Below are positions 52,618 through 53,056 of a stretch of 64,000 nt of DNA, one piece after another. The stretch spans positions 96,001-160,000 of the forward strand of contig MTLP01000042.1 of assembly GCA_002009975.1 (NCBI GenBank). Direction: 5' to 3'. The notes beneath the pieces were generated by a model. It ran no database searches. It was not told the origin of the DNA and saw only the letters and a list, made by a program, of their open reading frames with translations. The first letter of the stretch is position 1, and every line of letters starts with the position of its first letter. Source of the DNA: Thermococcus sp. JdFR-02 (lineage in GTDB: Archaea; Methanobacteriota_B; Thermococci; Thermococcales; Thermococcaceae). Both the position numbers and the translations under genes were made by a program.

Positions 52618-52880
52618 TAAGAGGCACCTCCGATATTTTTAAACTTACGTATGTCGTAGGAGTCAAAGATCTCTTTAACTGTTGGTATTGCTACAGTAGC
52701 TATAACTAAGACCCAAGCTGCTGCTGCCCAAACAACCGCAGCATAAGCATAGCCGACTAAGTTCAGAATGGCAGCGTGGTTAACTGCTGCTGCATTATTA
52801 ACAGCCACTACATTATTAGTGCTTATAGTAATGTCTGCGGGAGTGCCAACATCACCACCAACAGGGGGCACGTAGCTCAT
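52617..52880 (-). CDS. RiPP precursor B, 87 aa, Val/Ala-rich with Nx5N ladder
   Basis: SD GGAGGTGA; MSYVPPVGGDVG leader; D10, D16, N22, N28, N34, N40 at exact 6-residue spacing. Confidence 0.85.
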   Translation of the reverse strand: MSYVPPVGGDVGTPADITISTNNVVAVNNAAAVNHAAILNLVGYAYAAVVWAAAAWVLVIATVAIPTVKEIFDSYDIRKFKNIGGAS

Positions 52881-53056
52881 GCACTTTCACCTCCTGATGT
52901 TTTGTCTTTTAACGGCAAAGACCAAATAATTACAAAAAGTACTGGCATAATCAGTGTGAATGTTGATCCTGGACCACCAACTTCAACTACAACACTGCCA
53001 ACTTCATGTCCAAGATCTTCTCCAATAGGGGGTAGATACGTCTTCAGTGCTATCAC
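52877..53056 (-). CDS. RiPP precursor A, 56-59 aa (absent from ORF track)
   Basis: (VIA)LKTYLPPIGEDLGHEVGSVVVEVGGPGSTFTLIMPVLFVIIWSLPLKDKTSGGESA*; GTG 53056 or CTG 53047 start (GGGGTGAT SD); ATGA overlap with precursor B. Confidence 0.75.
   Translation of the reverse strand: MIALKTYLPPIGEDLGHEVGSVVVEVGGPGSTFTLIMPVLFVIIWSLPLKDKTSGGESA

Follow-up and report, generated by a model that had tools for sequence, protein, structure and literature searches.

Gene A, a small gene without an ATG start codon in Thermococcus sp. JdFR-02, is probably (at roughly 60 %) the second precursor gene of an undescribed archaeal peptide system built around a radical S-adenosylmethionine (SAM) enzyme and a RiPP recognition element (RRE; RiPP, ribosomally synthesized, post-translationally modified peptide). 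It lies in the window analyzed here, a stretch of 64,000 nucleotides (nt) of contig MTLP01000042.1, whose own genome is coded G000. The minus-strand cluster of the window runs in the order A, B, radical SAM enzyme, stand-alone RRE, PH-like membrane protein, and ATP-binding cassette (ABC) transporter of the ABC-2 type (permease, then ATPase). A preliminary description of this locus had read A as a hidden second precursor, which would form one part of a two-component toxin or else act as a signal or regulatory peptide, made at a lower level owing to the weak start codon. The precursor part of that reading is retained as probable and is strengthened by a conserved gene, its pairing with B, a shared motif unique in the genome, a neighbor with an RRE fold, and a CTG codon positionally equivalent to the start codon of the relatives. 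The features involved are as follows.

52877..53056, minus strand: gene A, a small open reading frame (ORF) encoding a peptide of 56 residues from CTG 53047 or 59 residues from GTG 53056, with the stop TGA at 52879-52877.
53009..53038, minus strand: N-terminal motif of A, YLPPIGEDLG, the proposed recognition (leader) motif.
52910..52960, minus strand: hydrophobic segment of A (FTLIMPVLFVIIWSLPL), its most conserved part, which includes Trp 42, the Trp that is invariant in the alignment of A- and B-type peptides.
52617..52880, minus strand: gene B, encoding an 87-residue peptide that starts MSYVPPVGGDVG and continues with an Ala/Val/Trp-rich hydrophobic segment; homologues are P0007-P0009 and those in the relatives' loci.
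51463..52617, minus strand: radical SAM enzyme of 384 residues with a CxxxCxxC motif, matching Pfam PF04055 Radical_SAM at E 2.5e-26.
51062..51466, minus strand: stand-alone RRE (PqqD-like) of 134 residues, recognized by its modeled fold, with a weak ScmD match.

The stop codon TGA of A (52879-52877) and the start codon ATG of B (52880-52878) share the tetranucleotide ATGA, an overlap that indicates co-transcription and translational coupling. The coordinates of the ORF, this overlap and the peptide strings quoted in the preliminary description are thus all confirmed. Upstream, the frame is bounded by TAA 53083-53081 and is open from there on. No in-frame ATG is found back to this stop, as had been claimed, and GTG 53056 and CTG 53047 are the only start candidates. 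A 59-residue entry of the protein collection (P0005) is identical to the GTG-start product of A in the window, of which it is the own product; at least one gene caller had therefore called the gene. Neither A nor B contains Cys, and the C-terminal half of each is strongly hydrophobic, with a 15-residue Kyte-Doolittle maximum of 2.46 in A (residues 32-46) and 2.39 in B. In A, the hydrophobic stretch counts 18 residues and is followed by K-D-K. Neither peptide matches a Pfam or NCBIfam family at E <= 0.01, and both belong to no curated precursor-peptide family of these two databases.

Gene A is conserved, within a very small family. A six-frame search of 97 family genomes gave matches at E <= 1 in 24 genomes and at E <= 2e-4 in six, including that of the window: G000, G098, G005 (in two places), G015, G074, and G030 (two truncated remnants). 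The 18 further genomes (E 0.03-0.74) were discarded as noise with their loci uninspected, many of these matches falling inside long open frames. A collection of 5.8 billion protein clusters holds only six relatives (P0001-P0006), the window's own P0005 among them and one being the 56-residue [quoted passage not shown]. Homologues share 74-88 % amino-acid identity, and P0004, 88 % identical to the A peptide of the window, has the same final 24 residues. The ratio of non-synonymous to synonymous substitution rates (dN/dS, Nei-Gojobori) is 0.19 between the window and G098 and 0.17 between the window and G015, with dS values of 0.54-0.59; the calculation draws on about 42 synonymous sites and 126 non-synonymous ones. 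These values indicate a real, protein-constrained gene, conserved under purifying selection.

Beyond these genomes, the family is hardly represented. Run against 1.84 billion representatives, a joint profile of A-type and B-type peptides retrieved four proteins (E <= 0.001), and a word-based search with B retrieved one 97 %-identical protein among three candidates. The ESM Atlas, queried with A, gave a low recognition score and returned only "hypothetical" clusters. A scan of metagenome contigs with the A alignment yielded 228 pattern matches, none of them confirmed, and tblastn of A against a plasmid collection gave no match. Among viral contigs, 31 pattern matches were found and one was confirmed, in the motif region only. 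It corresponds to a 142-residue ORF (L055, 5769-6197) carrying YIPPIGEDL, i.e., nine residues of the A motif, in an otherwise unrelated sequence, next to a 644-residue ORF taken by eye as a microvirus capsid protein. This match was judged to be due to chance and rejected as a true relative of A, because patterns of eight residues are expected to match such a collection by chance.

The feature shared by A and B is the N-terminal pattern Y-x-P-P-x-G-x-[DE]-x-G. A search for Y.PP.G.[DE].G through all six frames of the entire 2.36 Mb genome (4.72 million positions) gave exactly two occurrences, A and B, on the same strand and 164 nt apart, whereas about 0.03 occurrences are expected by chance from the composition (genome GC 38.1 %). 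Even for a pattern derived post hoc from A and B themselves, finding one occurrence immediately next to the other is far more than chance would give, and the leader-motif resemblance first noticed in the preliminary description is therefore not fortuitous. In an alignment of 12 A- and B-type sequences, the invariant residues are the motif Tyr, Pro, Pro, and Gly and a single Trp in the hydrophobic part, the motif Asp and last Gly being nearly invariant. Addition of the two G110 peptides leaves the motif Tyr, Pro, Pro, and Gly invariant, and both of these peptides have Glu in place of Asp. The motif begins at residue 3-5 in every A- and B-type peptide.

The pairing of A with B is observed in three diverged cluster lineages, in line with the idea of two associated precursors. 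Orthologues of the radical SAM enzyme were found at E <= 1e-45 in 10 of the 97 family genomes, G000 counted. An unbroken B gene and radical SAM gene occur together in five clusters (G000, G098, G005, G015, and G110), and in each of the five the gene immediately upstream of B is of the A type. The A-type gene of G110 is a diverged 38-residue form with a GTG start; its product begins MEKEYVPPTGGEID and ends hydrophobic, with no charged tail. The B-type gene that follows encodes 53 residues beginning MEYIPPAGGEIG. An upstream promoter-like block and a divergent ABC gene pair are also common to the window and G110. G116 was not scored, as its contig ends inside B.

Damaged copies of A are known as well. 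The gene is truncated in G030 (L027) and altered at its C-terminus in a second G005 locus. Frameshifts affect P0006 and a run X4 contig, the latter through a 1-nt insertion. In G074 (L026/L054), A has an in-frame deletion of three codons, B is frameshifted, and the radical SAM gene is truncated, its stump abutting a fragment of ABC ATPase gene. The second G005 locus (L042, 5278-7877) includes A, a PH-like gene, and ABC genes, with neither B nor radical SAM gene. A 74-residue ORF located there resembles, by eye, the N-terminal part of the G005 RRE. The retention of A in such decayed loci could reflect a role independent of the enzyme. Nevertheless, A as an independent module associated with an ABC transporter was rejected as the leading explanation, as the second G005 locus keeps this apparent RRE fragment and is, for that reason, probably a deletion derivative.

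The 134-residue neighbor is recognizable as an RRE only through its fold, since its sequence profile matches PDB sequences at chance level only (E >= 0.13). Its sole family match, NCBIfam ScmD, a PqqD relative, is weak (E 7e-4). The structure model has a mean predicted local distance difference test (pLDDT) score of 88.8 and has the RRE fold, with a three-stranded sheet and a three-helix winged helix. A Foldseek search of the PDB placed TbiB1 with the TbiA alpha and beta leaders at the top (template-modeling score 0.78-0.80, target-normalized), followed by the lasso B1-leader complex 6jx3, the RRE-containing TigE, TbtB, and NisB, and then PqqD. The model and this search together support the PqqD/RRE identity previously assigned to the protein. 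A predicted complex of the RRE with A, run without controls, scored 0.02 against a mark of 0.32, a value that speaks neither for nor against binding. The cluster thus combines a predicted RRE fold with small precursor-like genes beside the enzyme, whose products have a conserved recognition region and a variable remainder, as is the case for RRE-dependent RiPP clusters.

The radical SAM enzyme is a member of the superfamily that falls outside the SPASM/twitch subfamily. No SPASM match was obtained in Pfam, and NCBIfam matches cover only the N-terminal halves of MftC, ScmE, WgkB, and StsB, at about 125 bits versus cut-offs of 265-650. The nearest solved structures by sequence are SkfB (E 1e-20) and PqqE (E 8e-12). 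The only Cys residues invariant in five orthologues are C71, C75, and C78, which belong to the SAM cluster, together with C112 and C114; none is invariant after position 114, i.e., in the C-terminal 270 residues of this five-sequence alignment. The enzyme therefore lacks the auxiliary-cluster ligands of the SPASM/twitch maturases that it most resembles. Its structure model has a mean pLDDT of 63, with values below 50 at 273-318 in the C-terminal domain. An activity on Cys-free substrates by epimerization or carbon-carbon cross-linking is a guess.

In the mechanism proposed here, the RRE would grip A and B alike by the N-terminal motif and present them to the single radical SAM enzyme, which would in turn modify their Cys-free hydrophobic C-terminal parts. 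The link between this motif and the YxxP sequences bound by other RREs is one of analogy. The ABC transporter would then export the products or protect the producer, and a single set of enzymes would likely yield two different membrane-active peptides.

The cluster of the window (48871-53056) was also compared, gene by gene, with those of L043, L044, L051, L052, and L053, and the protein identities fall into two groups, given here as window versus the G098/G005 type and versus the G016/G065 type.

A: 80-82 % versus the G098/G005 type; no A gene in the G016/G065 type.
B: 39-43 % versus the G098/G005 type; 53-61 % versus the G016/G065 type.
Radical SAM enzyme: 54-55 % versus the G098/G005 type; 64-65 % versus the G016/G065 type.
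RRE: 39-41 % versus the G098/G005 type; 52-53 % versus the G016/G065 type.
PH-like protein: no hit in the G098/G005 type; 39 % versus the G016/G065 type.
Permease: 34-37 % versus the G098/G005 type; 61 % versus the G016/G065 type.
ATPase: 85-86 % versus the G098/G005 type; 62 % versus the G016/G065 type.

The ends of the cluster (A and ATPase) thus resemble the G098/G005 type, with an ATPase dN of 0.077 versus G098 and 0.286 versus G016, whereas the middle (B, radical SAM enzyme, RRE, and permease) is nearer to the G016/G065 type. This mosaic suggests recombination within the cluster family, and a natural place for the crossover would be the conserved 3' end of A together with B's leader region.

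The way in which A is translated depends on the following elements, including a Shine-Dalgarno (SD)-like sequence.

53045..53047, minus strand: CTG codon at the start position of the homologues, located by DNA alignment.
53054..53056, minus strand: in-frame GTG, an alternative start inside the SD-like element and the one used for P0005.
53052..53059, minus strand: SD-like GGGGTGAT, whose GGAGG-equivalent ends at 53056, 8 nt from CTG 53047.
53053..53064, minus strand: out-of-frame mini-ORF ATG TTG GGG TGA, with GGAGAG 9-10 nt before its ATG and a stop that overlaps GTG 53056 as GTGA.
53119..53126, minus strand: TATA-box-like TTTATAAA, inside the upstream block common to G110 (…cagtaaaactta…).

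The CTG codon at 53047 aligns with ATG in six loci (G098, G015, G074, G005, the second G005 locus, and the G030 remnant) and with GTG in the A-type gene of G110, and is therefore the positional equivalent of the relatives' start. The A loci of relatives all have an SD-like element of the GGAGG type a few bases upstream of their start, and both B and the radical SAM gene of the window have GGAGGTG 9 nt ahead of ATG. Genome-wide, the spacing from GGAGG to the start is 7 or 8 nt in 261 of the 491 ORFs with an upstream GGAGG. The 8 nt measured for CTG 53047 falls within this mode, so the earlier argument from SD spacing holds. For GTG 53056, the nearest upstream purine-rich element is GGAGAG at 53079-53074, which is 17-18 nt off and outside the usual spacing. 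A further-upstream ATG exists in some relatives; it opens a poorly conserved extension and is ignored by the T. litoralis annotation, and a stop lies in this region of the window.

The CTG is not an assembly error, as contigs from two other studies, runs X2 (52964-53129) and X3 (52524-53103), are identical to the window across this codon. Run X1, possibly the source sample, agrees with the CTG sequence too. The P0004 protein, which begins MITLGTY, likewise has Leu at the start position of A. The non-ATG state has thus outlasted divergence, with the ORF, and its last 24 residues above all, remaining intact.

Other routes to initiation can be considered. The geometry of the mini-ORF and GTG 53056 matches that of the A/B junction, making it a possible coupling route to this start, judging from the sequence. 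The TATA-like element at 53126-53119 is a possible promoter of A, with the transcript start deduced from its position. The Thermococcus promoter features used for this purpose come from the available part of PMC5316973, which also reports AUG in 94.9 % of the leaderless mRNAs of Thermococcus onnurineus. A leaderless start at GTG 53056 was rejected in favor of this better element, shared with G110, which would give a 5' untranslated region of about 50 nt. In Haloferax, ribosome profiling assigned about 30 % of putative alternative initiation sites to near-cognate codons, a set put aside by the authors in the part of PMC7261190 available. The ancestral ATG of A has become CTG, and initiation, from whichever codon, is probably weaker than in the relatives. 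Translation in this genome would most likely still proceed from the CTG, guided by the retained SD-like element, an outcome that ranks first at somewhat less than even odds. GTG 53056 is the next candidate and also a serious one, and a gene that is no longer translated is the least probable of the three outcomes.

Several observations weigh against A as a second precursor. The five intact clusters that carry A amount to only about three independent lineages, because G005 and G015 are nearly identical and G098 is close to them. No A-type gene is present in four related clusters (G016, G065, G068, and G063), and B-type clusters can therefore exist without A. All four are damaged, by a frameshifted radical SAM gene in G016 and G068, a frameshifted B in G065, and radical SAM fragments in G063. 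Conversely, an intact or near-intact A is kept in loci without a working radical SAM gene (G074 and the second G005 locus). The enzyme lacks the auxiliary-cluster Cys of its nearest characterized relatives. The hydrophobic C-terminal half and Lys-rich tail of A would also suit an ordinary small membrane protein, and, in the available part of PMC5622118, a switch from AUG to CUG was found for only 2 of the 61,358 AUG starts reconstructed as ancestral in prokaryotes.

The last two of these points each lead to a different explanation. The peptide could be translated without being a substrate, as a single-pass membrane protein aiding the ABC transporter or the PH-like protein in immunity, regulation, or an accessory function, its N-terminus being common to A and B through shared ancestry or as a targeting signal. 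The 18-residue hydrophobic segment followed by K-D-K fits this role, as does the conservation profile, in which A and the ABC ATPase are best preserved versus the G098/G005 type (80-82 % and 85-86 %), B, the radical SAM enzyme, the RRE, and the permease standing at 34-55 %. The second G005 locus, with A beside PH-like and ABC genes and without B or radical SAM gene, would fit too, but it looks like a deletion derivative given its RRE-like fragment seen by eye. Moreover, the G110 A-type peptide ends hydrophobic and uncharged, and across all lineages A and B have just one feature in common, the N-terminal motif, located where RRE-dependent precursors carry their recognition sequence. Such a membrane protein is unlikely, although it is the strongest of the competing explanations. 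Slightly weaker is the case for a silent relic, in which the change from ATG to CTG would have switched A off, with no further damage so far and only B still made. The frame indeed has no ATG, the family decays often (P0006, the X4 contig, G030, and the second G005 locus), and, according to the same available part of PMC5622118, a codon switched from AUG to CUG is hardly ever kept as a start. However, the diverged P0004 (88 %) has no Met at that position and is nonetheless full length with an identical stretch of 24 residues at its end, the SD-like element before the CTG is kept at canonical spacing, the same sequence recurs in contigs of two further studies, and an in-frame GTG lies three codons upstream. 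Finally, an open frame arising by chance in the 5' region of B might be suspected from the short length, the missing ATG, and the lack of any Pfam or NCBIfam model. Because the peptide is 74-88 % identical from one locus to another, synonymous changes dominate, and the motif recurs in the genome only in B, this explanation is refuted as far as sequence comparison can do so and its probability is negligible.

If A is a second precursor, bolder extensions may be envisaged. A and B could form a heat-stable, membrane-active two-peptide archaeocin whose Cys-free hydrophobic cores are matured by new radical SAM chemistry, e.g., epimerization or a carbon-carbon cross-link at the invariant Trp, with a genuine CUG start setting the A:B ratio in the lineage of the window. 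The enzyme would then have a SPASM-like domain stripped of all auxiliary-cluster Cys, and CUG would be a natural start in Thermococcaceae. This scenario is speculative and, taken as a whole, rather improbable. In a still bolder variant, the N-terminal motif would itself be modified and the hydrophobic tail would serve only as membrane anchor or follower.

RiPP-type products of hyperthermophilic archaea are almost unexplored, and this cluster family has no curated model, its two peptide types having very few relatives among billions of proteins. A second substrate gene would mean that two peptides, and not one, have to be sought. The occurrence of ATG, GTG, and CTG at one homologous site constitutes a natural experiment on start-codon use, and the cluster points, from its gene content, to a radical SAM enzyme that would do without the usual auxiliary clusters and take Cys-free peptides as substrates. 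The system is testable, because T. litoralis, a cultivable relative, has the ATG form of A.

The remaining genes around the cluster are listed below.

50580..51065, minus strand: membrane protein of 161 residues, matching bPH_5 (bacterial-PH-like) at E 0.0087, below the cut-off; it is conserved in related clusters, with 39 % identity in G016 and G065.
49787..50608, minus strand: ABC-2 permease, present in all related clusters.
48871..49785, minus strand: ABC ATPase, present in all related clusters.
53224..55307, plus strand: second ABC ATPase, ABC-2 permease, and 94-residue ORF, divergent from A and also adjoining the G110 cluster.

The role proposed for the permease and ATPase of the cluster is export or self-protection. 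The divergent ABC genes may belong to the system too, since they are also found beside the G110 cluster (L053, 10189-12262, in another gene order), where the counterparts of the permease, ATPase, and 94-residue ORF are 84 %, 72 %, and 40 % identical, respectively. The 94-residue ORF appears by eye to be helix-turn-helix-like. Downstream of the cluster ABC ATPase, at 47254-48765 on the minus strand, a 503-residue membrane protein has His-Gly and Cys motifs that, by eye, recall clan CD cysteine peptidases. Neither Pfam nor NCBIfam gave a match for it, tblastn gave no counterpart in the loci of seven relatives, and it may lie outside the cluster. Elsewhere in the window, two C/D-box small RNAs (Rfam sR58 and sR45) are located at 16607-16773, on opposite strands and about 50 nt apart.

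Among known systems, lasso peptide biosynthesis provides the closest RRE. Lasso leaders have a YxxP consensus, and a Tyr with a Pro three residues on is likewise found in the A/B motif. TbiB1, known in complex with the TbiA-alpha and TbiA-beta leaders (PDB 5v1v and 5v1u), has the fold of the RRE of the window, is likewise small and stand-alone, and serves two precursors; the sequence identity between the two proteins is, however, only 14-16 %. Unlike in lasso systems, the partner here is a radical SAM enzyme, the motif stands at the very N-terminus, and the peptides count 56-87 residues with hydrophobic C-terminal halves. No lasso protease (B2) or cyclase (C) was found among the 10 proteins scanned in Pfam, nor among the best 25 NCBIfam families for each protein, and the cluster is not a lasso peptide cluster.

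The literature on Thermococcus RiPPs, archaeal RiPP mining, Thermococcales archaeocins, and T. litoralis locus tags, searched without supplementary files, holds no account of the cluster or its motif. A 2026 preprint deals with a subtilosin-like sboA-albA-albC cluster of Thermococcus (bioRxiv 10.64898/2026.07.27.741052), which is likewise of the radical-SAM RiPP type, found in Thermococcales, and equipped with an ABC component. It is a different cluster, with an AlbA-type enzyme and a subtilosin homologue that contains Cys, and the available part of this report makes no mention of tandem precursors or of the motif of the window.

The most similar CxxxCxxC radical SAM cores are those of SkfB, PqqE, MftC, ScmE, and WgkB, and the PQQ, mycofactocin, and SCM systems share with the cluster a separate PqqD-like partner protein (PqqD, MftB, and ScmD, respectively). 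In contrast to these RRE-dependent maturases, the enzyme of the window stays far below the NCBIfam cut-offs and has a C-terminal domain without conserved Cys, whereas its putative substrates are Cys-free and display none of the known core motifs. With no Cys in the A and B cores to act as thioether donor, the peptides fall outside the sactipeptides and ranthipeptides. Thuricin CD is reportedly a two-peptide RiPP with a common leader, diverse cores, and one modifying enzyme. Thuricin CD and roseocin are bacterial sactipeptides or lanthipeptides relying on Cys cross-links, unlike the system described here, which belongs to an archaeon and has no Cys. Roseocin, as presented in the available part of its description, nonetheless offers a parallel for the tandem arrangement of A and B, as it combines two adjacent precursor genes, a common leader, differing cores, and ABC transporter genes within the cluster.

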